Positions 10,241 through 36,139 of a stretch of DNA of 64,000 nt are shown here, one piece after another. The position numbers were made by a program, and so were the translations under genes. The stretch's first letter is position 1. The number at the start of each line of letters is the position of its first letter. The stretch spans positions 1,116,001 through 1,180,000 of the forward strand of contig CM030336.1 in assembly GCA_017654855.1 (NCBI GenBank), read 5' to 3'. The notes under the pieces are model-generated. The model had not been told where the DNA came from. It saw nothing but the letters and a program-made list of their open reading frames with translations, and ran no database searches. This DNA comes from Podospora anserina (taxonomy: Eukaryota).

Positions 10241-10719
10241 TGTTAGCTGGTGAGACCTGATAGGCCTATAATATAAAGCCTATATAGGGTTGCTGTAAAA
10301 TACAGCAGTGCGTAAGCGGAAGCGGGAGGATACGACGGCAGTGCCGAAGGAAAGTAAAGCACTGTAATATAGTAAGGTATAAGGAATAAAAATTGCTTTT
10401 ATTGCCCTTGGCCTTAGCCTTTAGCCTTAGCCTTAAACTTTTGCCTTTAAGGAAAGAAAGAGAACTATTCTATAGGAGAGAGGAGAGGTTTATATATAGG
10501 CTTTCGTAGGCCTACTGTGGGTCCTGTAGGCCTTAGAAGCCCCTATACCACTTTGGGGTATTTAGTGGGCTTAGGTAAGTTTAGTGTAGACTTACGGAAA
10601 TCCATAGAACCTTCGGTAGCAGAGGTGCCCTGTAAATTACATTATTGTAGCAATTTACTACGTAAGCCTGTAGCTACTTTGAAAGGTTCTAGTATCTATT
10701 AACTAAGCCTTAAGCTATA
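10241..10719 (-). mobile_element. LTR family B (copia), partial
   Basis: Collinear with 43747-44225 and reverse-complementary to 41918-42551; cut off by a different LTR at 10720. Confidence 0.85.
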
Positions 10720-11228
10720 TATTACGCCCCAAGTATAATAACTCCGTAAAGGAACTACTGGGTGGTTCCCGAGGTGCTGGGACACCTTAGCTAATTATTG
10801 GGCCAGGGATAGAAAGACCCATAAAGTCCCTATATGACTAATTAGGAGGTGCTTAGTCTGATTAGTAGCTAAGACCACTGAGCACACTAAGCACATCGAT
10901 TATAAAAGATTGCTTAGTTTGCTTAGCCGCTAAGATTATTAAATATACTAAGTAAGGTATAAAGATACTTTAGAAACATATGTAGATAGCTGCATATAAA
11001 TAGGAGGGAGCGCCTAGCGTTCTCCGTGTCGAGGAATTTAACTCCTTACGCAAGTAATTAAGTTTATTTATCTATAATTTACTCTTAAGTAGTTTTTTAT
11101 AGAACGATATATTGTTAATAGTAAACCCCTTATTTAAGACGCTTGTCACAACCTTCGATTATCCTGTTATATTTACCTCTAGCGTACTGCCTTGCAGTCT
11201 ATATCCATTCCCGGTATAGGTTATAACA
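10720..11228 (+). mobile_element. Probable solo LTR, family E
   Basis: About 509 bp, T(G>A)TTACG...ATAACA termini, internal TATA-like ATATAAATAGG and short direct repeats. Single copy in the window and no TSD. Confidence 0.5.
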
Positions 11229-11649
11229 CCGTGCTACCTCTTTCCTATTAATTATTCTTTTCGGGTGTTTATATTATATTCGTGATACCTAGATCGATCC
11301 TCGATCCCATTAATCCTATTCTGGTTAGTCTTTATTCCTATACTAATAATTAGTCCGTGGTGCGCCCGCGCCTTACCTAGAAAAGGCTGTATAATATCTC
11401 GGTGGATTGTACGGCACAATATTAGCCTCTTCTTAGTTTGGAAGCAAAGAAATTATATTACTTCCTCAGACTAGTTAATTAAATAGTGAAGCAGCGCTAT
11501 TAGTAAACAAAGCGACGGCTTATACTAAACTAGCGTTATCCTATTCCTCGAGCGTAATATTGCGGCCCTAGTTAAAAAGTTATTTATTTAGTTCGGGGTA
11601 TTAACTTCTAGCAAAAGCTAGTCTAAGTTATATGCGGTATCGCTAATAA

Positions 11650-14600
11650 GAGGTATTTCCCGATTTCTTAAGTTCCTACTTGTGTAACGCATTTCGACAT
11701 TTAACCCCAAACTCGAAACACTCGAAGCTTATATATAAAGTCGCTACTGCTACAGATGTTACACTGATAGTAATCGCTGCCGTCTGCGACATATAATATA
11801 CAAATGTCACACCAAGCTAACGACTGACTGAACGGGACTGATCTGCTTTCCATATATGTATCTGCCGAGTTAACTTGCCAGTCAACAACCTCTTCGGCAT
11901 AGCGGGAAAAGAGCTAAATAAATTAATAACTACTACCCTTCCCTGCCTATTACATTAGTGTCCGACGAATAACATCCCTAAAGTCAATGCCAGTAACATC
12001 CCTAGTAAGAATTCTATAACTTTATTATGCCCATTTCTTAAAGCTCCGAATAACGGCGTTACATCGTAGTGGTCTTTGGTGTGTAGCTCCGATAGAAACT
12101 TAGTGAAATAGAATTGCACCAACATATAATGACCGTGCCGTGTAGCATGAAATAATACCGCCCGGCTATCGTCGTCCTTTCTTATAGTATTAGCTTTATA
12201 GTAATGTAGAAGAAGCTTAACTACGTCGGTATATCCTTTATTAGAGCTAAATAAATGAGTAATACCATATATTTTTATCGAGAGCTATAGTATCGGTACC
12301 CCTGTCCAGCAAAAGTTAAACAATATTTCGGTGGTCTCCCTCTAAAGCAGCACGAAGAGCGTTGCGGTACCAGGTACCCTGTACGTTAACATCGGCACCC
12401 CTGTCCAGCAAAACTTAAATAATATTTCGGTGGCCTCCATTTACAGCAGCCTGAAGAGCGTTACCGTACCAGCCACCCTGTACGTTAATATCGGCACCCC
12501 TGTCTAGCAAAAGTTAAATAATATCTCGGTGGCCTCCATTTACAGCAGCCTGAAGAGCGTTACCGTAATCGCCGCCCTGTGCGTTAACATCGGCACCCCT
12601 ATCCAGCAAAAGTTAAACAATATCTCGGTAGCCTCCATTTACAGCAGCGTAAAGAGCGTTGCCGTACCAGCCACCCTGTACGTTGACATCGGCACCCCTG
12701 TCCAGCAAAAGTTGAACAATATCTCGGTGGCCTCCATTTACAGCAGCCTGAAGAGCGTTATCGTAATCGCCGCCTTGTGCGTTGACATCGGCACCCCTGT
12801 CCAGCAAAAGTTGAACAATATCTCGGTGGCCTCCATTTACAGCAGCGTAAAGAGCATTGTTGTAAAGGCGGCCCTGTATGTTGACATCGGCACCCCTGTC
12901 CAGCAAAAGTTAAACAATATCTCGGTGGCCTCCATTTACAGCAGCGTAAAGAGCATTGCCGTAATAGCCGCCCTGTGCGTTGACATCGGCACCTCTGTCC
13001 AGCAAAAGTTGAATAATATTTCGGTGGCCTCCATTTACAGCAGCGTAAAGAGTATTGTCGTAAAGGCCGCCCTGTATGTTGACATCGGCACCCCTGTCCA
13101 GCAAAAGTTGAACAATATCTCGGTGGTCTCCATTTGCAGTAGCCTGGAGAGCGTTACCGTAAAGGCCGCCCTGCGCGTTAATATCGGCGTCTCCCTTTAT
13201 TAAGGCTCTTGAGACTGCTGCAAGTCTACCCAGGCAAGTATAATAGAGTCTCAATTCTTGTCGAGAACCCGGTACTCTGGTCAGCATATTATCCGCCTGG
13301 TACAGCTAAACCCACCGCTAAAAAGTCGACTCGTCCTATAAAAACTTAATACTTATTTAAATAACGTCTTTTAATCTTTCCGCTAAAGCGGTATAGTCCA
13401 TCCAATACTTCGCTACATATTACGCTATCGCAAATCTCTTTTTAATTTCCCACCATCTACCCTCAATATCCGTAAGGTATGTTAAACAAGTCCTGGTAAT
13501 AATAATGCTAGTAAAATGTAGACTAAACTACCCTTCCTTTAGAAAATACTCTTTAACTGAGAAATAGGTAAGGTAGAGCTCTTTTTTAGCCCCGTTATAA
13601 GCTAAAACATTAATAACTAATATTAGACCGGGGCAGTACTATAGAATATCGTTATCGCGAAAAAGCTTGCGCTTTAGGTCGAAGCCTCGTAGCTCCTTAT
13701 CCGTCTATATAGCTATTACCTCTACAGCCTTATATAGCGTTAACGGCCGTTTATTATAGATAAAGAATTGTAGGAGACGTATGGTATCCTTCTTAAGGTT
13801 TGTTAGTATATTTTAAAGTATACGCTAATATATCTCATTGAGATCCCGGGGCAAAGTCTTAAGAGCTATTTCGATATCCCTAAGACTTATATATTTTGCA
13901 AGGCTAGCCAATTAATATACTACCCATCTAAACCTATACTAAATATTAGATATTCGTTTAGCGATATAAATAGCCGGGGAGGAAATCTATATCCCGTTAG
14001 CCCTATCTCCGACTTTATTTTAAATCCGTTCGAGAAAATTTTAAGATAATTCTTTTTCTAAGAAATCCGGACTCTACTTAAGCTTTACTATAATATAGGA
14101 GCGTATATCGGCGTTAATAACCTTTTTATTAAGTTATAAATAATTATTTTTGCTTATCCAACCGGGAATGCGTCTTAGAAACTTTTTATTTGGCCGGCTA
14201 GTAGCGATTATACGAATATAGCTTAGGTCGGGCGCTTTAAAGAATTCTATTATCCACTAGAGTAATTCCCCTATCTCTATATATTTATTTAGTATATTTA
14301 TAACTAAATAAGTATTTTTCGAATCCTTTATTATTGTATAGAGTGTTTTTATTAAACTTAAATTATTTAACTATCTTTAGTAATCGAAGTGGGATTAGTA
14401 TAGGCTATTAAGTTCCTTAGAACTAGATCCTAATTTGTAGAGTTAAAAAATAAGAGAGCGTAATACGCCGTCCACTTTCTATTTCGAAGTGTCGTTAAAA
14501 TCGAAGTAGAATTGCAGGACTATATAATCGTTCCTTTTCTGGAGATGATCTACTATCGTCGCACTAAAGATAGTTTTACTATATCCTGCTAAGCCGTAAA

Positions 14601-15902
14601 GCTATAGATAATGTGATCCACACTTCTACTTATTAAAGGTAGGGCTATCGAGGAATTATAGCCCAGACCCTTCGTACTATTTTCTTTTCGCTTTATTAAA
14701 GTTAGTCGATATATCGGGTGGGCGGAGCTATCTCTTAACTTCAGTAAGGTAATAATTATATTTTATAGTTTCGACCTTAGTTTTAATTTTATTTACCGTC
14801 TAGTATAGGTATCCTAGGCCCTCTTAGACTGCCCATAGTTAAATAATATTCTATAATTAAAGTTATATTACTAACGTAAATCAATTACTTCGCTAATCCT
14901 CCTCTCTTCTTTAACTTTATTAGACGGGATTTAATATAAAAGATCCTTCGTATATGCCGCTACTATTATTACCGTATATCTTTACCAATCCTTATTCTTA
15001 TGCGAGTCGGAGTAATCGTATATCCCGCGGATCACTAAGCACGGGAAATAATTTATTAAACCGGCCGCCTCCATCTCGAAGCAAAGAACCCCCTTTTTAT
15101 TTATTAATTTATCCCGGATACATATATCCTTCATTAATTGGTTTCTACTAGTAATTAAACCGTAATAAATTGCGGGATTATCGTCCTCTTTATTTCGTTT
15201 ATTTCGGACCACTAAGTTAGTTTCGTTATTACCGTAGGTGATCTCGCAGCTTTCAGACGAGTGCGAAGGATGTATAACGTCGGATTTATATAATCTATCG
15301 CTTGTTAGAGTAGGTTTTCTGTAGTTTTTCCGCTTTTTAATCTTCTTCAATGTTATTTCTATATCGTCCAGAAGCTGGTGGCCCTTCATATCGTATGTGC
15401 CTTTGAGCGTGCTTATAGCCGCCCGCAGTACCGTGGGTGGTTGGTCCAAGAATACAGTCTTTTGGAACGTCTGATCCTGAATGGTTTTGCTAAAGTCGTA
15501 CTAGAATACACCGCCTTTCCCGCCACCGGGACTGCTGACTACTATATCCCCGAGTCGGATATCACGCTTCAGACTAAGCGTATTACCTCCGATGCCGACC
15601 ATTAACCTAATACGTACGTTCGGAAAGCTGTGAAGCATGTCTCGGGCTATTGCCGCCGCGGACGTTGTGCTATATTCTGTATTAGGTAGGACGGTAATGA
15701 CGATATTGTGACTGCTGATCTTGCCCAAGATATAGCTATTGTTGTCGTGCTGGGCGACTGCTTCAGGGCCGCCGTATTCTTCATCGAGGAAGGCTCGGGC
15801 TGCTACAGATTCCGTAGTTAGAGCGTAAATCCAGCCGACTGTATACTCCGAATTCGCTCCTTGTTAAGAGATATCCGAGGTCTCTAAACCATTAGAAACT
15901 AT
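11650..15902 (-). pseudogene. Fungal NLR-like gene: PNP_UDP phosphorylase - NACHT - ankyrin repeats - ZZ-type zinc finger; RIP-inactivated
   Basis: PNP_UDP motifs [53 protein letters not shown]. Walker A relic *LYGLAGYSKT near 14575-14605. ANK array 12292-13200. C-terminal CDIC...YQCNICSSSDF...ECF...C...H at about 11680-11815. Start ATG mutated to ATA and many CpA>TpA stops. Confidence 0.9.
12292..13200 (-). repeat. Tandem array of nine highly conserved 99-bp ankyrin-coding repeats
   Basis: ATCGGCACCC-like marker recurs at 12292, 12391, 12490, 12589, 12688, 12787, 12886, 12985, 13084 and 13183. Unit translates as GADVN(A/I/V)QGGxYxNAL(Y/Q)AAVNGGHRDIVQLLLDR. Confidence 0.97.
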
Positions 15903-17649
15903 TTTCCCCTTTTTTCTACTTTCGGCCGTAGTATTGCCAATGTTTGCCGTACTTAATAGTCGCTTCGACATCATCAAAGGTAGTTCTGAAATGGCAGTTC
16001 CGATATAGAGTTGAGTATGGCGCTCTGAGGTAGAGTATAGCTCGTCGTCAGAAATATTGGGAGCGGGGATGATGGAAGATAAAATAATGAGAGCACACAG
16101 CAATTCAGCTTCTGAGCTTGATTGAGCGGGGTTGGCACATTTCTACAGCGAAGCCACCGTTGGTGATTGGTCGCGATGTCGGGTGGTCCTCCAATTGGAA
16201 CCCGATTAGGTCCAACCGTCGTTGCCTAACCGCTTAGGTTTTGATATAGCTTACGTCGAAACTGGAAGCTCGAGCCGAAAGTTTCTTTGACCTTCTTATA
16301 ATTATAGGGGAAGTTCCTTCCGATCCGCCTTGCTTAGCGCAGGTAAAAAAGGGGGTTATTGGCGCTCCTGACCTGTCTGCTATCTAATGCGGTTATGAAT
16401 AAAAGTAAAACCCAATGTTATGTATCGTTGCGTAAGCTAACTTTACGTAACTTGCGTAAAAAAAAAACCTATGTGGACCTTGTAACTAATCTTATCGTAA
16501 CCTGCTTTGTTTTCGGCTGTAGTTGTCTATATTTTACTGCTCTTGTTAAAAAATTGAATTACCGGCTAGAGAAAGGCAGACCCTAACCCTCTACTTGCGA
16601 ACCTGCCTTAGTTGGCGAAACAACTGCCTGAGTGAGCACAGACCAACCAACTAATGCCACGAAATGTTTCATTGGTGCTAAATTGGTCAGGGAGACCCAC
16701 TGTTAAGGAATTAATATCTTGGCAGTGGGACTCGGCCAGCCACCTGCACCTTTCTCCCAAAGACAACCAACCAATTAACTAAGTTTGAACCTCATACCGT
16801 TGTTTGACACCTATCACAAGCAATTATCGAGGCGATTAGCACGAGTCCCTGTGGGCTTGATGTGATGCTGACCCTTAAAGGCGGTTTCGCTGCCCAGATC
16901 ATTAACCCGCCACGTTGGGCATTTGATGGGGTTGGCGCCTTCACGGCTGGCGCCAGTTGCGCATGTTCGAAACATCGTTATTGGCGGTGGTACAAACGTG
17001 CACGGACATCCAAGCGTCATCCAGTCGTTCAGCTGAATCCTCAGTAAAACGCATCCCTTCCGATAGTACATATAATCATGATTTCGGCTTTGTATGCCCA
17101 GACATGCAAAGAGTTATGCTTCATGATCATTCCGCTAAAGAGCCTGGAAATACGAGTCCGAGGTAGCTACTTCGCCAAGTACCAAAGTACCTATATTTTT
17201 ACCGCCCGTTTTATTTTCGATTTCTATTTCCTGTCTGCGCTTGGATGCTTGATGTTCATTGGAAGGCAGAGGGGAGTAAATGTAGAAGATAGGGAAAGAA
17301 ATATTGCTCAGTTTTTGGCAGTATATCTTCCAAAACAGAACCCAATTTCCCTGGAAATGACAGTCTGGATGGACATTTATATCCGGGGCAATAGTGTGAC
17401 GGCGGAGAAAGAGTTCGTCTCACGTCCCGCCACTGCGTCCGAGCCAATTGTGGTCGCCTTTAAGAAGCTACTGGCCATCGTGGAACGGAATTCAACAGTT
17501 TACATGGCATATGGAATTTTCGAGACGGAAGAAGATGAGGATGAGGTGTACTTCGATGCTGTGACCAGACCTGATCAGGGCGTTGAGCTCGAGGCTCAAG
17601 ACTAGGTGCATACCGTCCTCACTGTCTACCTTATCCTCGCCAGTGCTTC

Positions 17650-18770: not shown

Positions 18771-19128
18771 GGTCATTGGGCTTTAAGCGCCACCTCGAAC
18801 GCAGAGACTGCTGCTTTCGTCACATGACAGCGAGCCTTATGCCTTGAAGCTCTTCAGATAGTTCATGCTCATCCAGTGAACGTGGGTGTCTCCACTGGCT
18901 TTGCAGCCCTAAAGATTGCATTATCAACCACCACGCGGATAGTGGGCTTGGCATGTCATATGCGTTTCACTATCCATCTTATTTCTCATCAAGTGCTTAC
19001 CTTCCAGCGGCCTATCCCCAATATGTTGTCTATCGCACAACGTTGACATGAAAGCCCTGAGTTGCCACAAATATACCATAGCACCATAGTCATCGCCACC
19101 CGCAGAGCTAGGTACCGAAATAAGATGC

Positions 19129-21044
19129 CTAGAGCTTGGCGCCACCTTCATCATCATCATCCTCCTCCTCCTTACGAGCGCGAGTGACACTCAACTGACC
19201 CATCAATCTGCTGACCTCCTCCACAGACTCTCCCTCCATGCACTCCCCCTGGTCACCATCAGTCTCATCCTCCACCTCCTCCACCTCCTCCAACACCAAC
19301 CTCCCCCGCCTACCACGACCTTGAACACTCCCACTTCCACTACCCACACTCCCATGCAGGCCAGCCTGCGCTTGCATTAACCTCCCCTCCGTCAAACCAC
19401 CCCTCACGCTCCCCGCAGCTGTGACCGCAGACCCAAACGGATTCGAAGGCGTAGCCCGACTATCATGTCTACTCCCCCTCCAACCCCTCCTCTCCACCAA
19501 CACCCCCTTCACCTCCTTTTTCAGCGTCTTGATCATCTCCTCAATCACATTCTTCCTCTCCCTCACCAACATTTCCACTGCCCCATTCACCATCGACCCC
19601 TGGATGATATCCGCCACCCTCCACTTATGATACAAATTGCCGTGTCCCTTTCTCCTATCCACCTTGACGGGAGAAGCCTCAAAGTAAATGTCGCACAGCA
19701 TGCAAGTGGGCTTGGAACAGCCGATGTACCTCCCGAATTTATCCTCCATGAAGAAATCCCAATGTGCATCCTCCCTGCCAGGGGAAGGACAAAGGGTCTC
19801 CCTGCGGAGGTTGGACAAGAGTGTTACTTCTGCATGGACGGTGGTGATGCACTTGGGGTCTTTGATGGAATTTTTGAGGCCGGCGTCGAAATCCCTGGCT
19901 TGGAGCTGGGGGGAAAAGAAGTCGTAAGCGGCGTGAACTTCAACGTCGGGGGTGAGGCGGTTGAGGAGGTCTTTGCCTGTGCACATTCTTTCCTTGATCT
20001 GGAGGGGGCTGGGGAGCTTAGCTGGGGAGGGGTATGGGATGACTTCGGGGGACTCGAAGAGGTCGGGCCATTTTCCGCGGGCGACAATGAAGACGCGGAT
20101 GGCGAGGGTGTAAGAGTGGAGGCGGCCGATGGCGTGGCGCGTTTCGATCCAAGGGGAAGCGGGGCTGTCCTTCTCTGGGGACGAGTTCGAGACGTTCTCC
20201 GAGGAGGGGGCTTTGAGGCGGAGGAAGGAGGCAAAGGAGGAGGTGTAGGATTTTTTGAGGGCCATGAGGAGGCGGTAGGTTTCTTGGGTGACTGTTGAGG
20301 TGAGATGTTAGTTGCGGACAGACTTGGGACGAAGATAACATTGGGACTTGGCATGGCACATACAGGACAGGAGATCATGGGGCCAAGAGGCCACCGCTGC
20401 CTCGGCAATCGGAAGTAGCTCCCGCAGGCGTCCTGCCATTGTGGCTGGTTTGTGTCAGCTTTAACTCCCATCGATAGATTTCCAGGTGCCAGTAACTTAC
20501 CCTCAGCGCCAGAGTCCTTGGCGCAGCTCTCTAGGCAAAGTCCAATATTGTCAACCAATGTTCTGAGGTACTTGTACAGGCGCCACCGACAGTACACGAT
20601 GACCTTCTTCAACAGACTGTCCGAGACAGCCTTGACCTTGGCTTCGTCTTCAAGATCTTGCCCTTTCATGCTTCCAAGTACTTTCAAGATCTCGTCAGAC
20701 AAAAACTCCTTGACCCTGGCCATCTGTGTCTTGGTGCGACTATTAGAGGCAATCCAGTATTCCACCTGACCAGGTTGGACAATCATGGCGCTCGTGACGG
20801 TGTCTCCCCCATGCTTAGTATCGCAAATTTGCGCAATCTTGTTGACGAAGCACCTATACAGGGCGCGATCTTCGTCGGGGGTGGTAACAATAGAGTCATC
20901 GTCCGACGTATGGGGGTTCGACACATGGGGAAGTGCATCCTTCAGGGCACAGAAGAGGTGAATGGCTCCATAAAGCCGCTTTGCCTGGCTGGGAGCTAGC
21001 GGGACGGGTGTGGAGGTTTGAGCGGGGAGTGTTGCGCTGGGCAT
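19129..21044 (-). CDS. old: OTT_1508-like nucleic-acid deaminase (OLD-type), copy A, about 595 aa
   Basis: Exons 21044-20501, 20444-20364 and 20291-19129 (1788 nt, in frame; GT-AG introns with CTRAC branch sites). Motifs CFVNKIAQICDTKHGGDTVT, VHAEVTLL, YIGCSKPTCMLC, HGNLYHKW. Confidence 0.9.
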
Positions 21045-22130
21045 GTTGAGGGAATGTTTGGACGGAATGAAGGGGGCCAGAAGATAATTCAGTGAAGGAT
21101 TTGAGATGTTTCGATGGGAAACTAGATTAAGAACCGTGATCTGGTTAGTAGAGCACACGAAACGAGAATGACGGGAGAAGCAACTTGAAATTTATAATCA
21201 TCCCACCATCTCAGCTAGGGACCTGGTGATGTCGTCTGTCGTCTTCGCATTGTCCGTATGCCCCTCTCCCCTCTATGCCTCCTTGGCGGGAGGATACAGG
21301 AAATCTGCCTCGAACAGACTTGGGTCGCAACCTGGGCCAACTCACTGGTCAGTGATTGGAGGATTGGCTGGTTGGGTGACCACATCGCTCGACCCATCAC
21401 CAACCAAAGGTTTCAAGGCGTCCATCGGTAACAAACAGAACGAAGAGTCGAGAAATGACGGTCAGTTTTGTTCTTTGAGATTCTGGCAGGAAAGCAGAAG
21501 TTTGTGGGCGAGCTGTGGCAGAATGATTGACTTGTGGGGGGTCGGTCCAATGATAACAGTTCGACTGGGTCCAGTTGGCGTTCCGCCGTGTCACCGTGGC
21601 AGCGCTGTCTTGCATGCCGAGACTGTGGGCCTCGGCCTCGGTGCATATTCCGGCAGTGCGCTAACCATGCCGGCGCGCAGGTTGCCTTGGAGGCATAGGG
21701 ACCCCGTTGCGGGCCTCAAACCCGCTCCTCCCAGAACAGTGACGCCTCCGGATTGCGAACCACGGTGGGCCAGCACAGTGTCCCTCGGCCAGCTGATTTG
21801 GGCTTAGTATTTGAGTAACCGTATTTGCCCATGAAACAGAATGTCAGTTGTCTTGGAGGGTCCAGTGGAACACGCGCTGGGTTTGCATCTACCTTATGTA
21901 ATGCTCAAGTTGTCAGGGAGAAGTTCTACATTGCGAAGCTAGGGAGCATCGAGCGGTAAGGGAACGATGTCGAATGACCTTTGGTTACAACACTGTTACT
22001 GACCGGTGGTGTGGGAACGATAGTCGCCATCGCCTGCTACTGTCACCAACTCAACCAACACATTTGTCCTCATCCCCACATCACAACACTTTCAGTTGAC
22101 GCTAAACGTTCTGCAGGCTTGCAAATTGGC

Positions 22131-23530
22131 ATGCTTGAGTTTCTGTAAGTCCCACACCCATTGTTACCAGGGATAACGGCCTCAGATGGGACGGAAGCCA
22201 GGCGAGGTTGGGATTTCGGAACAACAGTGGTAACGGTCCAGGTCGAATAGTACCTTTTCACAGGTCCCTAAGCCTGTGTTTGGTGCCTTTTCCCGCGGCA
22301 ACATCGCAGACCAGGGTGCTGAAAGCGAATCGGACCAGGCCTGCCCTGACACTATTAGCGCTTTGCATCCAGATTGCCACTGGTTCCCCATGCCTTCTGG
22401 CAGGTTGTCCAAAGGAAAACAGCGAGCATCGGAATGGGCGCCTTACGACCACCCCTCTTCTCTAATGGGTCATGAAACGTACGAGGAGCTTGTTCCGGGG
22501 CAGGGGGGCATCGATCCCAGGCTCCTACAAAATGACTTCGCTCCGGCACCTCCTGAACCTTTGGACTATCCGGCTGGGCCGACTGAGTACATGGCTCCGG
22601 CTGAGGCCCAGCACGATACACCAGCTCTAGTTCCATCCACACATGTTATAAGAAGCGCTCAGATTGACTACACCAACGACTACCACGACGCTCAGAATCA
22701 GTTTCACACGTCCCAGGTCGACAGCTTTGTGCCATCTTATCCTTCGAGTTCCGGCCACGAGTCTTAGTACTCCACGGCCCAACAGAACTCGAGTGTGCCT
22801 GCAACTTTGGATCTTGCAGTACAACAAGAAGCACAAACTGACCAAGACTTTCGACTTTTCTTCTCCGACCTTTCAGTTTCGAATCCACCTTTCTCCGCTT
22901 CTGGGACAGCTTCAACGATTCCTTCCACCACTCCTTACACCTACCAAACGTTCGACACCAACAACAGCCAACTCCCCTGCACAATCATTCCTACAGCAAT
23001 GACGTCTCATGATATTGTACACACCAGTTACGAAGAACAGGGCTACTCAGTGGACCCCAGTCTTTACCAACTTGAAGACACCTCTTACTACACGGCTGGC
23101 GAAGCTTCTACTTCCTATGCACAGCCCTACTCACAAGAACCCGACACCACCGAAGCCTCGCCGACCAGCTCTGAGCCCAATAAATGTCCTGTTTGTGGAA
23201 AGTCCTACAGGCGGAAATGTGATCTTGAGTTCGTCCACCCTGCATCACGCATCCTCTGAGTCTTCTTTAGCTGACACCCCACCCACAAACAGCAAGCATA
23301 TGAACAATCACACCAAACGCCGCCAGTGCCCTTTCCGCGACTGTGAAGGTGGTGGAGCCGAGACTAAAGACCTCAATCGACACCTGTGGACTCACCATCC
23401 CGAATATGCCTCTGCAGAGAACATCCCCAAGGACGAGGAGTGGTGCGGCTTCCAAGGGTGCGGGTATCATGGACGTCGGGACAATGTGAAGAGACATAGG
23501 GACAACCATAACCACTGGCCTTCGGCGTAA
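22131..23530 (+). CDS. zao: C2H2 zinc-finger transcription factor (ZAO-type), copy A, with in-frame UAG at 22765-22767
   Basis: ORF-track pieces 22276-22767 and 22795-23259 are in the same frame, separated only by TAG. Intron 23229-23292 restores finger 1 (CPVCGKSYRRKCDLDKHMNNH); fingers 2 and 3 follow to stop 23530. Start is either ATG 22131 (with intron 22145-22250) or ATG 22390. Confidence 0.85.
22744..22792 (+). other. Predicted mRNA stem-loop presenting the premature UAG (candidate edited A at 22766)
   Basis: TCGAGTTC 22744-51 pairs with GAACTCGA 22785-92; GGCC 22753-56 with GGCC 22776-79; GAGT 22759-62 with ACTC 22769-72; loop is CTTAGT. Confidence 0.7.
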
Positions 23531-24423
23531 GAGAACACAGTTGTGGTTGGGGTCATTGGATACAATATTGGGTTCTCAATGGTTTTGCACCAAGTCATGA
23601 CTTTCTGGGCATCATTCTGCTTCTTTGAAGATTGTTATGTTGGTTTTCCTCTTGTTTCTTTTTGATGAAGGCTTGTTACGACTCATGAGGACACGATGAT
23701 ATCTCTACCCCTGTTTTAGCTTTGGCTTTTATGTCTCCACTCTTTCTTTGGGACCATTCTTGGAGTCCATTCTTGCCCACTTCTCATGTTTTTGAGCTAT
23801 TCTTGGTTGTTTTTTGAGCTTGGACGAAGACCAGGGCCTTTCTTTAGACAGATATTTCCTACAATGCAACAACCCCCTCTTTGCACTTTGGATTTGGCTT
23901 TTGCAAAGGAAGAGAAAACTCAGTATCCGCAAACACTGGCTGGGGTCTACATTCACCCAACTAGCGATATAGGGCTGACACCAAGCAAGAACTGTGCTGC
24001 CTTGTGGCCAAGAAACATCACCGCCAGTCGTTGAGGGCTAACGAACCCGCACACTGCAGTCGACTGCACCTTTTGCACAGGTGTACGATTGGGTGCTCTG
24101 GAATGGTCGCTGGGCAAGTCTTTCACGAGACGAAGTGGAATGTTATCATTAGGGGAAGGGGGGGTAACTGCTGAGTGGTGGAGTTGGAGGAAACATACAT
24201 CATCGTCAGGCTCTACAGTAAGAAGGTCTCCAGACGGCGCATGGAAATAACAAACACACTTTGAGTGTATCTCTAGACAAACTGACAAGACAACTTGAAG
24301 AATCCTTCCCTCTGACGTAAATCTGGGTCATAACATCATCACAAAATGCCAACTTAAACAAGAAACCAAAACAAGCAGCAACCCATGCTTGTATATTCCC
24401 AATCTTTGGAACAAAACACCCTA

Positions 24424-25449
24424 TCAACGACGGCCGTGAACAAGCATATGTCGCTTCATGTTGTCCGCCCTCTGAGTCCGTCCGCAGATCTCGCACCTCT
24501 TCTTGTGCCTTTGGACCCTCTTATCAGCACGAACATCAGCACGGTCACCATGGCTCTTAAGTTTGTGGCGATCCAGATCCTTCTGCTCTGCAAATCCTTT
24601 GCCACAGATGTTGCACTCTGTTGGCCTGCGGTGATTTTTTTGATGCTTTCTCAGCTCACCGGGCAGATTGAACACTTTTGATCCTTTGCACCCAAGATAG
24701 AGACAGTAGAACTTCCCGTCAATGATTGTGTACGGAACTTCAGATTTGGCCGGGTTGGTTTGGCTGGGTGGCTCGGTCATCGAGGCGGGGAGGGGATAGA
24801 TGATAAGATCACGTGCGTTTGCAGCAGGGAAAAGGTCGTTTAGGGTAGGCAGCACATTTATATGGTGTGTGAAATTTGCCGACAGGGTGTCGTTGACGGG
24901 GTCGTTGAAGGAAAACAGGAGGTCGTCGGGTAATGTTGAATCGGAACCATATTCTGACTCATCTGGTGTCAAGATGGTTGAATTGCTGGATATCTCGGAT
25001 GATTGAGACGAAGAGCAAGGAAATCCGAACTCATTGTCGGGTGGCGTATGAAATGAGACCACGGCGATTTCTGGAGTGGAAACGCTAGCTGAATATCCGT
25101 GTGGCGAGCTCTACGAGCTCAGTACTGGGACTTCAGTGCGCATCTCCGCTACAGAATGCGGAAAGTGGGCCAAGGGGTCAAAAGAGCCCCCATCGTAAGT
25201 GATTTGGTGGTTGGTAGTTGCAACTTGTAGGCCTCGTTGCATCATCAGAAGCGATGGGTTCACCGTTACACCTTCGTCAACGTTTTGGGAGAAGGTGTAT
25301 GGCTCCATCGCCATCGCCTGTGAGCCAAGTCCAACCCCTTGCCCTTGAAGGGGAAGGTCAACAATCCAAGGATGCTCCTCATTTTGTTCTGTGAAAGCAT
25401 CTGATTCGGAAACCCAGTTTGGGGACTGGTAACTGTATACGCGCAACCC
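24424..25449 (-). CDS. zao: C2H2 zinc-finger transcription factor (ZAO-type), copy B, with in-frame UAG at 25113-25111
   Basis: ORF-track pieces 25446-25111 and 25062-24424 are in the same frame, separated only by TAG. Three fingers: CLYLGC...HQKNH, CNIC...AEQKDLDRHKLKSH, CEIC...RADNMKRHMLVH. First in-frame ATG is 25314; an intron at 25498-25450 leaves the 5' structure unresolved. Confidence 0.85.
25089..25136 (-). other. Predicted mRNA stem-loop presenting the premature UAG (candidate edited A at 25112)
   Basis: Sense strand reads CTGAA-GTCC-cagtac-TGAGCTC-GTA-GAGCTCG-ccacac-GGAT-a-TTCAG: inner GAGCTC/GAGCTC stem with UAG at the apex, plus outer CTGAA/TTCAG and GTCC/GGAT stems. Confidence 0.7.
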
Positions 25450-26293
25450 CTGTGATTAGCAACTTGACGCTCCTTGGTGAGACAGAGGTGGTACTCACTG
25501 GTGGTTAGACATCACCGGCGATACAGGAAACGCCTGGAGAGGTACCAAAACAGCAGCCCGTGGTCGTATCAGACTCGGATGAATGTATAGGTACCCTGTC
25601 AATGAAGGTGGAACGAGCTATGTATGTGGTGTGCAGCTCGGGAGCTGCAAAGAGATGGTGGAGATGGAGGAGCACACGATCCCAGCAGCAGCGCAGAAGA
25701 ATGCCAGCTCAAATACCGACCAAGCTCTTTCCGTTTGCTAATCCTCCGCTTCACAGATTGGAAACGGCAGGAAACCTTCCCCGTCGTCTGCCGCCAGATT
25801 TGTTTGCAGTTTCAGTTGTGAGGTCCAAGGCACCCAATGGATCCAAACAACGTCACACAGATCCCACAAATGAGGATGTCGCACGCGGGCCGCGAGAGGG
25901 AGGGTTACATCGAGGTAGGCCTACTGCATTAGTGCCGCCTACCGCAGCTCTTTACGTTGCATTCAAACCAATCAATCATCTCTGCCATGCCGCGTCGGTC
26001 CATATTGGAACCCTCCGGGTTGTACGATGTCAGTGGGGCTTGAAAATACACAGCCTATCTTGTTTGCTACCTACGTGGTCGTCCTGGACCACTGAATAAA
26101 GCAGTGATCGAATGGCAAAGTGTGGATTTGTTCAGATGTTTGGCATGTCGGTCTTCAACTAAAATATACATCAAGTAAGTGCTAAATCTCTACCCTCGGC
26201 AATTTTCAGAGTTGAATCTCACCCGTCGACTTCACAGCTACGAACGTACTGAGTAGCTACTTGGCTGCTATTCTTTTAGTAGATTCAAACATC

Positions 26294-27935
26294 ATGAGTT
26301 CAGAGGAACAAACAGCCATCACATTGCCACCCAGCATGCGCAAACGATTTTACGAGGCCCTCATGATCATTTGCAGCATGACTCACATTTTTTCAAGAAC
26401 AGAAAACGGCACCAGGTCCCCGAGTCTTGAGCTCGAGGGGGTTGCTGACAAGAACTCACAAGGAACCTTTTTCTGTTTCGTGAACAAGCTTAGCCAGGTG
26501 TGCGACAGTGAGAGAGGGGGTGATACCGTCACCGCCTTTTCGGTCTTGCAACCAGACATCATCGAGTATCGCTTCACTTCAAACAGCAGAACGGAAATAA
26601 GTTTCCAGACAACAACCCGATTTGTGACAAAGCTTCTGAATACCCTTGGAGGAATTTCAGGCCCCGAGCTCCAGGAGGCGCGACGCAATGGAGAGGACTC
26701 CCTTCTGTTCTTGACTCTGATGCAACAAATACTCGAGTTCAACCGTCCCCGCATTACAAAGTTTCACATCGACTACCAAATGGCCAGACACCTCGAATTC
26801 TGCGCCAATGCCTGCACGGATGCAGAGGTAGCGACTCTTCTAAGAGCACTCAAGACTTTGGCTGATGCTTCTCTCGAGCCACTCTTATCTGATTGCGAAT
26901 GTGGGTATCATCAGGTCTTGGAGGAAGCTACACGCTTCATAACGTCACAAGACCCTAACTGACCCCGTTCCAGTTGCCATTAAATGCCAGCTTCTTCTCC
27001 GTACCATCAGCAGTATTTTCCGGAATCCCCACGTTAAGGAATACCTCCGGGAACGTACCCGCGAGGATCGAGAAAAGGCCAACAAGACACCCTGGACTGA
27101 AGTCTACCACTCTCTTGGCCGCTTGCAATCTTACACAATCGCCGTCGCAATTTTCATCACCGCACGCCAGCGCTGGCCCGAACTCTTCGACCCTGGATTT
27201 AAAGTGACCCACGTCCCCTCCAGCACACCCGCTCCTTCTCCCTCAATCAGAGGCTCTCCGGAACGTATCCTTTCACGGCTGACCACAAAGGAGGCCGTTC
27301 TCAAAGCTTTCAAAGAGGGCACCACCGACGCAGCCGGCCACCAGTCCCACCTCACTGATCTGACCAAAAAGCTCGAAAGCACCATCCGATCCAAGTGCAA
27401 GAAATTCCACCCCATCGTTCACGCCGAAGTTCACCTTGCCGATCATATCCTCCGCGAGTTACGCACAAACAACTCAGGACTTCGTTTCTACAACGAAGCC
27501 GCCTTCGGTCGGTACATTGGCACCTCTAAGCCAACTTGTCACCTCTGCCACTCGTACTTTGCCTGTCCATTTCTCTCTTCAACAGGTCGCATTCAAGTCC
27601 GTTCCAGTTCCCACAACTACTACCATAACTGGCGGGTTCCACACGTATATCCGGAGGACGGCGCCGAGGCAGAAAAGATGAGGAATAAGGTGATGGGGTG
27701 GATGATTGAGGATGTGAAGGCGGAGGCGGAAAGGACGGTGGTGGAGAGGTTTGCGGTGAGGAAGGGGCATGATAGTAACACGTACCCTTCCATGCCGGAT
27801 ACAGATTCGGTTGCTTCTATGCAGGTTGGTTATGGGGGGAGCCAGTCTGGTGCTGATGAATCTGTGAGAAGGCTGGGCGCGATGGATGATATAATTGCTA
27901 GTTTTGGGGGGATGAGGGTGAGTGTTGAGGAGTAG
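26294..27935 (+). CDS. old: OTT_1508-like nucleic-acid deaminase (OLD-type), copy B, about 522 aa
   Basis: Exons 26294-26900 and 26974-27935 (1569 nt, in frame). Motifs CFVNKLSQVCDSERGGDTVT, VHAEVHLA, YIGTSKPTCHLC, SHNYYHNW. Clear but divergent paralogue of 19129-21044. Confidence 0.9.
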
Positions 27936-28142
27936 AGTGTGCAGCCCCTTCACCTTCGTCATTTTCACACTCATTTTCAGAGCGTATCAGGTGTTTTCCA
28001 GTCCGCACTGCGGCATGTGTATTCCAATCTAAGCAGCATCAAGCCAGCTACATCAATTCTAAACAGTAACCTAACGCCATGCTACACTTAACACCGTCCA
28101 ATGCAAACGCCCAACTCCTCAGAAAGACACGGTCAATACCGC

Positions 28143-29741: not shown

Positions 29742-30755
29742 ATGGATTCCCCAGAGGGCGAGTTTGACGGCAACGATTTTGCCAACAACCTCTTCAGCGA
29801 TCTCGCCCCCCTCCTGACGCTTTTCGGGGAGCAAGTCACAAAACAGTTCCTGTCCATGAGTGTGGGATGGGCCGACAACGTACTCTTGGCAATGGGCCCC
29901 CTGGGTATCTTGACCATTGTTGTGAGCGCCATTCGTGTAGCGGGTGAGACCGTACCAAACCTCAAGGCGCTCATTGGCAGAGCAAGGGAGGACAGGGCCA
30001 GCGTTGAAGTTGAGTTACTCTCTTCAACATCTAGGGAGGTTTGCGAACTGTGGACAGGAACCCAAATCGTTCGAGTACGCGGACAACCCCTCATATCTCA
30101 GCCGTTCATCATGACCGACACGGGTAACGTCTATCCCCTGTGGAATGATGTGGCGCAGGGGACTTTTGAGGTCAACTTCATGGCGCAAGACTGGGATCGC
30201 GAAACCAGCTTGTTGGCAAAAGTGCCGCCCAACCTTGGCTTGAATATTAGCGGTGCTATCCCTTCGAACCGTGAAATGTGGATGTGGGCTGCTCTGGGAA
30301 CTGTCCTGCAACTAGCCTCGCTGGTTGTGAGCGGGACTGTCACTTATCGTTGGAACTTGGCCCAGGTCGAAGTTCCCACCACCACATACGGATATCCCTG
30401 CTATCTTCTGGGCACTCTGCTTTTGACTCTCGGGGTTCTCCTGTGCGGACATATAGTTGAGACTGTCAGTAAAGAAAGGACTTTCAGATGTAAGGCAAAA
30501 ATGCGAAAGAGAGTGCGCATTTTTCGCATTCAACTGGCCGCCACCGTAAACGACCAGCACTTTGACAGTTATCTTATCTTCAACTCCCCCGAGAATCCTG
30601 ACGTCTATGCACCATTCTATCAGGGCATGAAGAAGAATACTCGGTATGTTCATTACCCTCCAGCCCGAATACCGCTGTTTTCTAACATCAATATTTGCGA
30701 GATATTATGCAATTGCAGGATCAGCGCTGTCATTCATGGGCTTTGTCACACAATA
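29742..30755 (+). pseudogene. Membrane protein of a fungal family usually bearing C-terminal ankyrin repeats; 3'-truncated by a Fot1 insertion
   Basis: Conserved N-terminus DFANNLFSDLAPLLTLFGEQVTKQFLS...LAMGPLGILTIVVSAIRV...ELLSSTSREVCELW and hydrophobic segments. Probable intron from 30644. Interrupted at TA 30754-55; no continuation seen beyond the transposon. Confidence 0.7.
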
Positions 30756-33067
30756 ACGTACTTTATAAGCGAGTCGGTCATATAAGTGGGCCGGTCACTT
30801 TTCGACCGCGACGCGTCCTCCTACACTCAATATCAACTTTCTCTACAACCCAACATGCCTCCTACCTTAAATGAAGCCAGGATAATCTTAGCTCTTAAAG
30901 CTATTTAAAAGACTCCGAAATTAAGCCTCCGGGCCGCAGTAAAGCTATATAATATACCATTCTCAACCCTCCGTAACCGACGCGCCGGCCGGCCTACACG
31001 ACGCGATACTACGCCCAAATCGAAGAATCTCACTTAATCCGAAGAGGATACTATTATTTAATGTATTATTAAGCTATATACGAGAGCTTTTCCACCAAGA
31101 TTACGTAGTATAGAAAATATAGTTAATTAATTATTACGTATATACGACGCGGCTTTTATTAGTAAGCTCTAGGTATATAACTTTATTAAACGTTAGCTAT
31201 AGTTCTATACGCGTTTTACGCGTAAATAAAATTATTAAAGGGCTAAGTACGAAGATTTAAAGGTTATAACCGAGTAGTTTACGTTAGTACGAAATATTAA
31301 AACTAAGTACGGTATTATAAATAATAATATTTATAATTTTAACGAAATTAGGTTTATAATAAATATTATTTTTATAAGTATAGTAATTACGATATCGGAC
31401 GGTTTTAATAAAGTAAAATTAATTTAATTTAATAACCGTAAATAAATAACGGTAATTTAAAGAATTAATACTTTTAATTAAACTATTTTTCTTTTTATTA
31501 TTTTAACCGTATAATACTATTTTATTAATTAATATACTAAATATAATTTATAATTTATTTAATATATTATAATTATTAATAATAATTAAATTATTAATTT
31601 AAAAAATAAAATTAAATTAAGTATTTCGATTATTATATAGCGTCCTATAAAAAGGATAAATATCGATTATTAATCTTAAACGGTTACGAAAGTTATTATT
31701 TAACCGAATTCGAATATTATTATTAATAAACTAACGTTATTACGCTTTATATACCTCTATACTCTTCCTACCTTCTCTAATTACTCGATATTAATTACTT
31801 TAGGCCGTTAAAATAAGTGTACGGTCGTTAAATTAAGGACTTAATATATATATAGATATTAATTATATAAGTAAGCTCGAGTTCCTTTATACCTTCCGCG
31901 AGGCTTTTTTTGCCTTTATAATAAAGAAAAATATATAGGGTAGCTTTGCGGGTGCTAGCCTTATACCGTATGATTTAAAGAAGGTAATTTCTAAATTAGA
32001 TATAAAGCTTCGTACGTTAATATCTTTAAATTTACGGCCCGGTACTATATAACTTTGGGTCTCTTAGATACTATATAACCCTCGAGAAACTAACTTATAA
32101 TTAACGTTTATTAAGACTCGCATTACTAACTATTAAAATAACTTCCCGACTTTAATAATAATTATAATAAACTAACTTACTAAAAGTATAACGGTTATAA
32201 TATATTAAGTGGCCCTCTTGCAGGTAGAGGTCTCTTCGCTCCGTAAGGCTAATAAGGCACTAAGCAAACGCCGGAGAGTTAAAAAAATACGCGTGAGACT
32301 TGGAGGGTTACTTACTGTACAAGAAGCACAAAATCTACTGGATTAGAAAGCCGTGGATGGGGAGATATGACGAACCCCTGTACAGAACCTCTGAAAGGGA
32401 TACGGGTTGAAGGTAACTTCTGACAATTGGTCCGGTGTAGCTAAACAGTGCACAACAAGATATCTCGATATAAACACAAAATGCCGTGAATACAAGCTTA
32501 AATTGCATACTGCGGAACTATCTATCTACACCAGCCAGTTCCTCCGTATATATAGACTTTAGGACCGTGAGGTGCTTACCCTGCTATGGCCCCGATCACT
32601 CCTAGCACATTGCATCCTGCATTGTGCTCGCCGTGCTATGCCTCTGATCATCCTTAGCATCTTGCATCCTGCAGACTGCTCGTGAGCCTTGGCGCTATAG
32701 CACCTTTGTCCAGGCCTGATTGGCTTGTTCCCTAACTTCCTTAATAATTGGCTAAGGACGTCCTGCGCCCCACATGTGGCGCGACCTGCCGTTGGGTTAA
32801 CTGTGACAGGAGAGAGTATAAGAAACGCAGCCGGATAGTAGTAGTACAGGGGGGGGCTCGTACGAAGGTTCGGTGCTGTGGTGTGTGCGGCAAGCCTGGC
32901 TATAATGCACGCACTTACCAGGAGGCTGCAGAATCATCTGATTCAGCTGTTTCTGATATAATTATAGTTAGTTCCTAATATTGGTGTATTACAATTGAGG
33001 GTAATTATAGTAGGGTAGTGAAAAGTGGCTCACTCGCTTATATGGCTCACTCGCTTATAATGTACGT
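30756..33067 (+). mobile_element. Fot1/pogo DNA transposon, copy 2, containing a solo LTR
   Basis: TA-flanked TIRs ACGTACTTTATAAGCGAG... / ...CTCGCTTATAATGTACGT. Length is 1864 bp after removing the LTR and one TSD. Collinear with copy 1. Confidence 0.95.
32366..32808 (-). mobile_element. Solo LTR family A (crapaud-like), lightly RIPed
   Basis: 443 bp with T(A/G)TGAC...TGTGACA ends and a perfect 5-bp TSD GGAGA (32361-65, 32809-13). Confidence 0.95.
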
Positions 33068-33254
33068 TAATGTACGTTACTTTTTGCCGCCCGTTTTATT
33101 TTTAAGTTTTATTTTCTGCCGGCGCTTATGCGCCTAAGGTGCATTGGAAGACGGAGGGGAGTGAATGTAGAAGATGGAAAAAGAAATAGTCCTTCACTTT
33201 TACTTGTCCCGAATTCTTCGCAATTCAAAGGCCATTCTATTGGTATGCCCTTTA

Positions 33255-33986
33255 AGCACTGTGACTAACCGGGAGGAGCAGCTCAAACATAGATCCTTGG
33301 TCAGGAAAGCTTTAGCTACGCTCTCGCCCACGCTAATATATTCCCTCCATTATACCCACCTCATCAGTTTTATATTTGTTCTTCTTCTTGATCCAGGTCA
33401 CGGTATTATATAGGTTAAAGAAGCCGTTGATCTTTTCCGGGGTAGCTCCGTTAATGCGGGAGTAGTTGATCTCTTGCCTAGTTTAGTTTTAATCTCTGGG
33501 CGCCTTCGAATAAAGTGGGATACCCAGTGTTTTCCGGGCTTCTTTTCTCCCTAGCGCTCCAGTATATGGGTAGCTAGAGCAAATGGGGGCCAACGGACTG
33601 GTCGTTGGGTCTTCTATTAGGGCTCAAAGTCTGTGTACGTCAAGGAGAATGGAAAACGAATCTGGACCACTATACTTGAGTGTATCTCACAGGATGGCCG
33701 ATGTCTCACGCCCTACGTTATTTTTAAGGGCAAGAAGATTCAAAAGCAGTGGTTTAACGAAGACTACCGTGAACACTGGTATATTAATGCCACAGAGGAA
33801 GGCTGGACTAGCAATGACATTGCTCTTATTTGGTTAACGAAAGTCTTTATCCCTGAAACCTAACCTGACGATAATTCCGGACCACGGCTTCTTAATTACG
33901 ACGGTCACGGTAGCCACTATACCGACGACTTTATAATTAAATGCTTCTGGAATAATATTTACCTTCTTTTCTTACCTCCCCACATA
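33255..33986 (+). mobile_element. Relic of a second pogo/Fot1-type transposase (HTH-CENPB + DDE_1) with an internal inversion
   Basis: Plus strand: WTTILECISQDG...PYVIFKGK, GWTSNDIALIWLTKVFIPET, RLLNYDGHGSH, LLFLPPH. The KHWVSHFIRRRPEI...TDEVGIMEG part is on the minus strand at 33343-33581. Confidence 0.85.
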
Positions 33987-35848
33987 ACGTATATTATAAG
34001 CGAGTCGTATATATAAGCGAGTCGTATAGTTTCTACCACGACGCGTCCTCCTTACACCTAATATTAATTTTTTCTATAACCTAACATGCCTCCTACTTTA
34101 AAGGAAGCCAGGATACTTTTAGCCCTTAAGGCTCTCTAAAAGGACGAAAAATTAAGCCTCCGAGCTATAGCTAAGCTTTATAACGTACCACCTATAACTC
34201 TCTCTAACTGACGCGCCGGCCGGCCTATACGACACGATACTACGCCCAGATCGAAGAAGTTTATTTAATCCGAAGAAGAGACTATTATTTATTATATTAT
34301 TAAGTTATTTACGCGAGCTTTTTTATTAAAGTTACGTAATATAAAAAATATAATTAATTAATTATTACGCATACGCGACGCGCTTCCTATTAATAAACTT
34401 TAAATATATAATTTCGTTAAACGCTAGCTATAGCTCCGTATACGTTTTACACGTAAATATAATTATTAGTAAGTTAAATATAAAAATCCGAAAGTTATTA
34501 CCGAATAATTTATATTTATATAAAATATTAAAGTTAAGTACAGTATTATAAATAATAATATTTATAATTTCGACGAAATTAGGTTTATAATAAATATTAT
34601 TTTTATAAATATAATAATTATAACCTCGAACGGTTTTAATAAAGTAAAATTAATTTAATTTAATAATTATAAATAAATAATAATAATTTAGAAAGTTAAT
34701 ATTTTTAATTAAACTATCCCGCCCTTTATTATTTTAATTATATAATATTATTTTATTAATTAATATACCGAGTATAATTTATTATTTATTTAAAATATTA
34801 TAATTATCAATAATAATTAAATTATTAATCCAGTAAATTTAAATTAAATTAAATATTTTAATTATTATATAACGTTTTATATAAAAAGTAAATATTAATT
34901 ATTAATTTTTAATAATTATAAAAATTATTATTTAATTAAATTCGAATATTATTATTAATAAAATAATATTATTACGCTCTATATACCTCTATATTCCTTC
35001 TACTTCCTTTAATTACTTAATATTAATTATTTTAAGCCACTAAAATAAATATACGGCCATTAAATCGAGGGCTTAATATATATATATATTAATTATGTAA
35101 ATAAATTTAAATTCTTTTATATTTTTCGTAAAACTTTTTTTATTTTTATAACGGAAAAAAATATATAGAGTAACTTTATAGGTACTAACTTTATATTATA
35201 TAATCTAGAGAAAGTATTTTTTAAATTAAATATATAGTTTTATACGTTAATACCTTTATTTTTAAGGCCGGGTACAATATTTCTTTAAGTATTTTAAATA
35301 CTATAAAACCCCCGAAAAATTAATTTATATTTAATATTTATTAAAACTTATATTATTAATTATTAAAATAATTCCCCGACTTTAATATTAAATATTATAG
35401 ATTAATTTACTAAAAATATAATAATTATAATACACTAAATAGCCCTCTTATAAGTAAAGGTCTCTTCGCTCCATAAGGCTAATAAAGTATTAAGTAAGTA
35501 CCGGAAAGCTAAAAAAATACGTATACGGCTCGGAGCATCACTTACTATGCAAGATATATAGGATCTATTAGACTAGAAGGCCGTGGGTGGGGAGGTAGTG
35601 GAAGAAATATAGCCGGATGGCGGTAGTGCAGGGGGGGCTTATACGACGGTTCGGTGCTGTAGTATGTGCGGCAAGCCTAGCCATAACGCGCGCACTTACT
35701 AGGAGGCTCGGGAATTATCTAATTCAGCCGTTTTTGATGTAATTGTAGTTGCTTCCTAATGTTGTTGCGGTATAATTAAGGATAGTTGTTGTAGGGTGGT
35801 GGAGACTGTACGACTCACTTATATGTACGACTCGCTTATAATATACGT
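33987..35848 (+). mobile_element. Fot1/pogo DNA transposon, copy 3, full length, heavily RIPed
   Basis: 1862 bp; TA at 33985-86 and 35849-50; TIRs ACGTATATTATAAGCGAGTCGTA... / ...TACGACTCGCTTATAATATACGT. Confidence 0.95.
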
Positions 35849-36139
35849 TATAAGTTTTTCACTCAGCCTACACGGCACGGTTTTCCTATATAAATAGCAC
35901 CAAAAGTCCCGGCGCACTCGTTACAAAAAAGGGTAAAACGGTGTAAGAAGAATAAAAATATATTAATCTATTAGCCAGCAAAAGCAAGGCAAGTCTCGCG
36001 GTAGTAAACTTTTAAGTCATAGACTGTACAAAACACGAATACCGTTCTCTATCAGATTATCCACCATGTGATGGGGTTGCCCTCGAACTCCTGTCCATCT
36101 GCTTAAAAACGTACCTCGCCTCGCGCCCGGCAATCTCCG

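Follow-up and report, generated by a model that had tools for sequence, protein, structure and literature searches.

A hairpin around a premature UAG in a Podospora zinc-finger gene as the probable substrate element of an OLD-ZAO-type RNA-editing switch

In a 64,000-nucleotide stretch of Podospora anserina DNA (hereafter the window), a C2H2 zinc-finger gene, ZAO-B, carries a premature in-frame UAG at the apex of a predicted mRNA hairpin (hairpin B). We consider hairpin B to be the probable substrate element of an OLD-ZAO-type switch in which A-to-I RNA editing corrects a stop codon, and we place the probability of this reading at about 0.75. Under the proposed mechanism, translation of the unedited ZAO-B mRNA would end at codon 112 and give a 111-aa product without a DNA-binding domain. 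An expressed OTT_1508-like deaminase would then deaminate the unpaired A of the UAG at the hairpin apex, and the resulting UIG would be decoded as UGG (Trp), giving a 340-aa transcription factor with C2H2 fingers. The likeliest enzyme would be the divergently oriented neighbour OLD-R, possibly with OLD-L as well.

This reading has a precedent in Neurospora crassa, in which two OLD-ZAO gene pairs act as a switch of the antiviral response (Honda, Yokoyama & Suzuki 2025, Cell Host Microbe, via PMC12754623; PMC13327615); here and below, statements about published systems refer to the portions of the reports that were open to us. In that fungus, OTT_1508-like deaminases convert UAG to UIG in the mRNAs of adjoining zinc-finger genes, yielding full-length transcription factors, and the OLD enzymes prefer an A that has U at −1 and lies in a hairpin loop (PMC12754623). 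For the Podospora locus, our results cover its anatomy, the retention of the UAG, the stability of the hairpin, the deaminase neighbours and the conservation of the stop and frame. Its features, in window coordinates and with the evidence for each, are as follows.

19129..21044, minus strand: OLD-L, OTT_1508-like deaminase gene, 595 aa (Pfam PF14441, splice joints)
22131..23530, plus strand: ZAO-A coding region, about 412 aa if its UAG is read through, TAA stop (RNA contigs, translation)
22743..22793, plus strand: ZAO-A mRNA hairpin (hairpin A) with a CUUAGU hexaloop (MFE fold, shuffles, recodings)
22765..22767, plus strand: premature in-frame UAG, ZAO-A codon 180 with the ATG at 22131 as codon 1; its A is 22766 (sequence, RNA contigs)
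24424..25512, minus strand: ZAO-B coding region, C2H2 zinc-finger gene (splice joint in 4/4 runs, Pfam, translation)
25089..25136, minus strand: ZAO-B mRNA hairpin (hairpin B), 48 nt, three-tier (MFE fold, shuffles, synonymous recodings)
25111..25113, minus strand: premature in-frame UAG, ZAO-B codon 112; the candidate edited A is 25112 (sequence, fold, RNA contigs)
26294..27935, plus strand: OLD-R, OTT_1508-like deaminase gene, 522 aa (Pfam PF14441, splice joints, translation)

Read on the minus strand, positions 25136..25089 are CUGAAGUCCCAGUACUGAGCUCGUAGAGCUCGCCACACGGAUAUUCAG, and the MFE structure of this RNA is (((((((((..((..(((((((...)))))))..))..)))).))))), with an energy of −17.5 kcal/mol. 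The outer tier pairs CUGAA with UUCAG (5 bp), the second tier pairs GUCC with GGAU (4 bp, including one G.U), and a third step of 2 bp pairs GU with AC. The inner stem, UGAGCUC against GAGCUCG, has 7 bp (six Watson-Crick pairs plus one U.G) and is capped by a GUA triloop. The sequence-only reading had described a 48-nt hairpin at 25089-25136 with CTGAA/TTCAG, GTCC/GGAT and GAGCTC stems and had set the UAG of gene B at its apex. The MFE fold agrees on both counts: the A at 25112 is the final base of the GUA loop and is unpaired with a probability of 1.00. It has U at −1 and G at +1. An unpaired loop A preceded by U in a stable hairpin matches the OLD preference described in PMC12754623, and this match supports the editing-switch reading. 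A point against this reading is that the loop has just 3 nt in the MFE fold, so that its closing pair may need to open before an enzyme can gain access to the A. The hairpin core, GAGCTCG-TA-GAGCTCG, is also a direct repeat with a 9-nt period built on a self-complementary hexamer, and it encodes Ser Ser stop Ser Ser; both stem arms could have arisen together through an in-frame duplication of 9 bp.

Hairpin B is real, and it exceeds chance moderately to strongly depending on the test applied. Among 200 dinucleotide shuffles of the 48 nt, one was equally stable (z −3.28). The reverse complement of 25060-25160, the 101-nt frame that the sequence-only reading had singled out for folding, reached −40.6 kcal/mol, a stability attained by 0/200 shuffles (z −4.67). 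When the same 21 codons were recoded synonymously, 41/2000 recodings equalled hairpin B in stability (z −2.24), and 55/2000 placed the A of the UAG in an apical loop closed by at least 6 pairs. Two cruder tests make the hairpin unusual, not extreme. At least equal stability was found in 36 of the 2486 48-nt segments taken from nine exon blocks of the window, a count that includes segments overlapping hairpin B itself. An A in an apical loop is common by itself among UA sites (89/230); a closing stem of at least 6 pairs in addition was found at 11/230.

The ZAO-B coding region starts with an ATG at 25512..25510 and consists of exon 1 (to 25499), an intron (25498..25433) and exon 2 (25432..24424), which ends in the natural stop TGA at 24426..24424. 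The open reading frames on either side of the UAG share one frame, so that decoding of the UAG as Trp would give a product of 340 aa, against 111 aa when it acts as a stop. The C2H2 fingers lie downstream of the UAG (Pfam zf-C2H2, E=2.7e-8). Downstream of the UAG there are 228 sense codons, an open run with a chance probability of about 1.8e-5.

Across 98-99% of the query, ZAO-B aligns with full-length gene models from Cercophora samala (57% identity) and Triangularia setosa (45%). An exhaustive protein search added a full-length model from Apiosordaria backusii and a C-terminal-only model from Triangularia verruculosa. In each of the three full-length models, a gap of 9-19 residues coincides exactly with the stop, and the T. 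verruculosa model begins 3' of it; a residue at the stop site is encoded by none of these four models. The 111-aa short form is identical to a catalogued protein (P0152) present on 20 contigs. It belongs to a cluster of six members, of which P0152 and P0153 have the window form and P0003 with P0155, P0154 and P0156 represent three distinct variants; all six terminate at ...VPVLSS. A search for a full-length protein from the same organism with a residue at the stop found none among proteins of 184-587 aa; its two matches both came from other genera. As judged from protein models, these data indicate that the stop and the downstream frame of ZAO-B are conserved across genera.

Pseudogenes are usually recognised by a premature stop, and the window is rich in AT-rich blocks resembling those left by RIP. 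One might accordingly regard gene B as a decaying pseudogene whose hairpin arose by chance. We consider this very improbable. The 228 open codons 3' of the stop, the conserved fingers at 57% and 45% identity to the orthologues, transcription with correct splicing in 4/4 runs and the unchanged stop position in three variant sequences all argue against decay; the open frame, fingers, stop position and splicing together lead us to conclude that ZAO-B is not a pseudogene.

Evidence on the transcripts came from RNA contigs of four public runs, from four studies, which we compared with the window over 19000-28000. GT..AG joints are present in all contigs, so the four runs are RNA, and all four genes (OLD-L, ZAO-A, ZAO-B and OLD-R) are represented in each run. 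In 4/4 runs the ZAO-B contigs contain the joint 25432/25499 and continue unbroken from 25432 to 24242 or beyond. No contig of the four runs has a splice joint at 25112 or 22766, and since contigs cross both positions without a joint, both premature UAGs are kept in the mature mRNA. An intron over the ZAO-B stop was considered and is ruled out by the unbroken contigs in all four runs. At 25112 and 22766, the contigs of 4/4 runs show the genomic letter and no A-to-G change; as contigs drop minority variants, this means that the unedited form was in the majority in those runs, and no more.

The same comparison revealed five single bases at which window and contigs disagree (19378 T>C, 22095 G>C, 26341 C>T, 26368 C>T and 27272 T>C), each at full contig depth in 3-4 of the 4 runs. 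They are most simply explained as strain differences and not as editing; the first, 19378 T>C, would amount to A>G in the sense orientation of OLD-L. The contigs also overlap in the convergent 3' region of the two zinc-finger genes (23530-24424): contigs of gene A extend to at least 24009 (X3), those of gene B down to 23904 (X2), and a single contig of X1 spans both ZAO-A and ZAO-B. Overlapping 3' ends could be a source of antisense double-stranded RNA. By analogy with the Neurospora module, which is repressed by an Argonaute (PMC12754623), this overlap may be relevant to regulation of the locus.

ZAO-A, the second zinc-finger gene, starts at the ATG at 22131 and has introns at 22145..22241 (or ..22250) and 23229..23292. 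The first coding intron uses alternative acceptors, 22241 in contigs of runs X2 and X3 or 22250 in contigs of runs X1, X2 and X5, and the two products differ by the presence of three residues (SNS). No Pfam family was called in the ORF of the last exon. ZAO-A and ZAO-B can be aligned in the zinc-finger region and nowhere else (33% identity over 85 aa, E=2e-9).

The premature UAG of ZAO-A also lies in a hairpin, composed of an apical GAGU/ACUC stem, a GGCC/GGCC stem and a 9-bp outer stem. Folded as 53 nt, hairpin A reaches −20 kcal/mol, and none of 200 shuffles (z −4.01) and 5/2000 synonymous recodings were equally stable; within a 101-nt frame its stability does not reach significance (z −0.74, 41/200 shuffles). 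Its target A at 22766 has a probability of 1.00 of being unpaired and U at −1. Hairpins A and B share no alignable sequence, which upholds the claim of the sequence-only reading that the two differ in primary sequence. In this one pair of paralogues, the same hairpin-stop design is built from unrelated sequence, and both hairpins exceed the stability that the encoded protein demands.

These results bear on the view that the ZAO-B UAG is a true stop, never recoded, with the 111-aa protein as the product, perhaps alongside a finger-only isoform translated from an internal start. On this view the hairpin would have another role, in mRNA stability, ribosome pausing or translational read-through, or would be a by-product of duplication. 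The unedited form is the one form seen in the RNA contigs and the protein collection, as this view predicts, and the direct repeat GAGCTCG-TA-GAGCTCG in the hairpin core is obtainable by duplication. Known read-through signals, however, lie 3' of the stop and not around it. The true-stop view also has to accommodate the recurrence of the design in ZAO-A from unrelated sequence, the stability of both hairpins beyond that of synonymous recodings, and the keeping of the stop and downstream frame across genera. A finger-only isoform that is independent of editing, zao-1C, does exist in Neurospora (PMC12754623), in keeping with a true stop; weighing these points, we regard the true-stop view as quite unlikely.

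The two zinc-finger genes are flanked by two deaminase genes. OLD-R has coding exons at 26294..26900 and 26974..27935, an intron at 26901..26973 and a leader intron at 26175..26237; OLD-L has introns at 20292..20363 and 20445..20500 and a leader intron at 21122..21184. Both encode the OTT_1508_deam family domain (PF14441), with E=2.2e-17 and an HAE...PTCHLC motif in OLD-R and E=1.3e-17 and an HAE...PTCMLC motif in OLD-L, and both matches are above the 27-bit cut-off. Aligned over 523 aa, the two proteins share 28.7% identity (E=9e-60). As arranged in the RNA contigs, OLD-R and ZAO-B are divergent (head-to-head), OLD-L and ZAO-A are likewise divergent, and ZAO-A and ZAO-B are tail-to-tail. The locus is therefore made up of two old, diverged deaminase/zinc-finger pairs. 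That both pairs have the same design, in unrelated sequence, is a further line of support for the editing-switch reading. A comparison of the two divergent OLD/ZAO promoters for a shared motif found no common word of at least 10 bases, and shared 9-mers were at shuffle level.

The closest named homologues of OLD-R are in Podospora pseudopauciseta (92% identity over the full length) and P. bellae-mahoneyi (94% at 73% coverage); after Podospora come Triangularia, Cercophora and Cladorrhinum. In searches limited in sensitivity and length range, no Neurospora protein appeared among 36 near-length and 4 longer homologues of OLD-R; nor, in a search limited in the same way, did one appear among the named ZAO-B homologues of the 14 clusters inspected. 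What the Podospora genes are seen to share with N. crassa old-1 and old-2 is thus domain and architecture.

Both deaminase genes themselves end in a natural UAG; the natural stops of ZAO-A and ZAO-B are TAA and TGA, respectively. In OLD-R (27933-27935, plus strand), the A of this stop lies in a 6-nt loop, GUAGAG, with a probability of 0.90 of being unpaired (folded over 27904-27964), and read-through would add 51 aa. The hexamer GUAGAG is common to this stop and to the premature stop of ZAO-B. The hairpin at the OLD-R stop is not significant (z −1.26, 21/200 shuffles). At the OLD-L stop (19131..19129), the A is paired (probability of being unpaired 0.08), and read-through would lengthen the protein by just 6 aa.

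The UAG could instead be edited by the general ADAT machinery, that is, Tad2-Tad3 with the sexual-stage cofactor Ame1, hairpin B being one of its ordinary substrates and the adjacency to deaminase genes being regulatory or coincidental. Tad2/3 likewise favours sites in hairpin loops that have U at −1 and, at +1, G or A (PMC12754623, PMC11169179), and hairpin B has these Tad2/3-Ame1 substrate features as well; because the OLD and Tad2/3-Ame1 systems prefer the same context, sequence cannot separate them. In Fusarium graminearum, moreover, Zou et al. ascribed editing of the CHE1 stop to ADAT on the basis of context similarity (PMC11169179). What tells against Tad2/3 is that the zao stops of Neurospora are edited by OLD proteins (PMC12754623), and that the existence of two independent deaminase/zinc-finger pairs, both having a UAG within a hairpin, would be difficult to account for if enzyme and target were functionally unconnected. 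We therefore hold editing of hairpin B by the general machinery to be unlikely.

How far each deaminase would distinguish between the two hairpins is a separate question. In Neurospora, OLD-2 edits zao-2 only, and the targets of OLD-1 comprise the two zao genes and further sites (PMC12754623). This asymmetry fits some substrate discrimination but not a strict one-enzyme-one-hairpin rule, and the available portion of that report names no determinant. The sequence-only reading had interpreted the hairpins as editing substrates whose different loops could give each deaminase paralogue its own target. The first half of this interpretation fits the UAG being in frame, in spliced mRNA and in a hairpin loop, the deaminase neighbours and the Neurospora precedent (PMC12754623); the half on specificity is tempered by the OLD-1/OLD-2 asymmetry. 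In its strongest form it would be a private hairpin code: OLD-R would read GUAGAG on a rigid, GC-rich stem, at the ZAO-B stop and at its own UAG, and OLD-L would read the CUUAGU hexaloop of ZAO-A, giving two insulated circuits with self-editing feedback of OLD-R on its own C-terminus. We think such a code quite unlikely. If it were true, either hairpin could serve as a portable editing tag that can be programmed.

Elsewhere in the window, long AT-rich blocks (GC 0.16-0.38) occupy 6000-16000, 30000-36000 and 40000-64000, with gene islands of GC about 0.5 between them; the blocks look like old repeats altered by repeat-induced point mutation. For the Podospora homologue, the locus-tag number (…_500040) hints at a position at a chromosome end. 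On the minus strand at 36140-38467, a single-exon ORF of 775 aa has an N-terminal EEAKARA-type repeat, and its C-terminus has a weak match, below the Pfam cut-off, to the APH phosphotransferase/kinase-like family (E=2.9e-4). We also scanned metagenome DNA for orthologous sequence in which covariation could be assessed: among 120 pattern matches, the ZAO-B alignment scan found no relative. The sole locus from a metagenome scan with protein P0041 (L001) was rejected as unrelated; its DNA is AT-rich and its Cys/His match is short.

If the editing-switch reading is right, this locus would widen the range of the third known nuclear system of A-to-I mRNA editing from Neurospora to another genetically tractable fungus. 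It offers two natural substrates of about 50 nt and unrelated sequence, one a triloop on a 7-bp stem and the other a hexaloop on a 4-bp stem, and this contrast makes OLD recognition testable by stem and loop swaps. An editable stop would also explain why automatic annotations in at least 4 related genera truncate the genes or place an intron over the stop. Our literature search, judged by titles and abstracts, found no publication on an OLD-ZAO module in Podospora, and the phylogeny of Honda et al. may include Podospora; one preprint mentions, in the portion open to us, ADAT genes alone. The editing principle itself is already published for Neurospora, and what is new here is a second instance, in Podospora.

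Among known systems, one comparison is with the ADARs of animals. The substrates of animal ADARs are paired adenosines within long duplexes, which these enzymes bind via dsRNA-binding domains. As in ADAR recoding, RNA structure within the coding sequence would direct site-specific A-to-I editing; the difference is that the A in ZAO-B is unpaired in a small apical loop and that the enzyme family would be OTT_1508.

The Tad2-Tad3-Ame1 system carries out sexual-stage A-to-I editing of mRNA in Sordariomycetes, including at sites where a premature stop is corrected (PMC12754623). It resembles the switch proposed for ZAO-B in that editing of a UAG whose A is preceded by U and lies in a hairpin loop restores a full-length protein (PMC12754623). 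It differs in having thousands of sites, an enzyme derived from a tRNA deaminase and a stage-specific cofactor, and, as far as the available account goes, in having no adjacency between enzyme and substrate genes (PMC12754623).

A further parallel is CHE1 of F. graminearum, a C2H2 gene with a conserved premature UAG (145 versus 310 aa) that is edited in hyphae (Zou et al. 2024, PMC11169179), the edited stop lying in a predicted hairpin loop (PMC11169179). Orthologues of CHE1 have been annotated as truncated at the stop, as beginning after it or with a false intron over it (PMC11169179), and the gaps and the late start in the ZAO-B orthologues are the same annotation artefacts. CHE1 departs from the Podospora locus in that its editing is ascribed to ADAT, that no neighbouring deaminase is described in the portion open to us, and that the stimulus is oxidative stress (PMC11169179).

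The closest counterpart is the OLD-ZAO module of Neurospora (PMC12754623). Both loci have two pairs in which an OTT_1508-like deaminase gene adjoins a C2H2 gene; in both, a UAG lies 5' of the fingers, so that the short product has no DNA-binding domain; and in both, the target A is in a hairpin loop with U at −1. The Neurospora module is induced by mycovirus infection and repressed by the RNAi Argonaute QDE-2 (PMC12754623). Fixed TGG alleles are deleterious, with severe defects of growth and reproduction in Neurospora and in Fusarium (PMC12754623), and a TAA allele in Fusarium produced no detectable phenotype; alleles of codon 112 in ZAO-B would be expected to behave likewise. Editing has been reported for the Neurospora module (PMC12754623), and the Podospora locus is known from sequence and RNA contigs; editing itself, the enzyme responsible and an antiviral or stress role would be carried over to Podospora by analogy with the Neurospora work. 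Four of the features that define an OLD-ZAO module are found at the Podospora locus: the deaminase family, the adjacency of the genes, a premature UAG kept in the mRNA, and a target A that is preceded by U in a loop.
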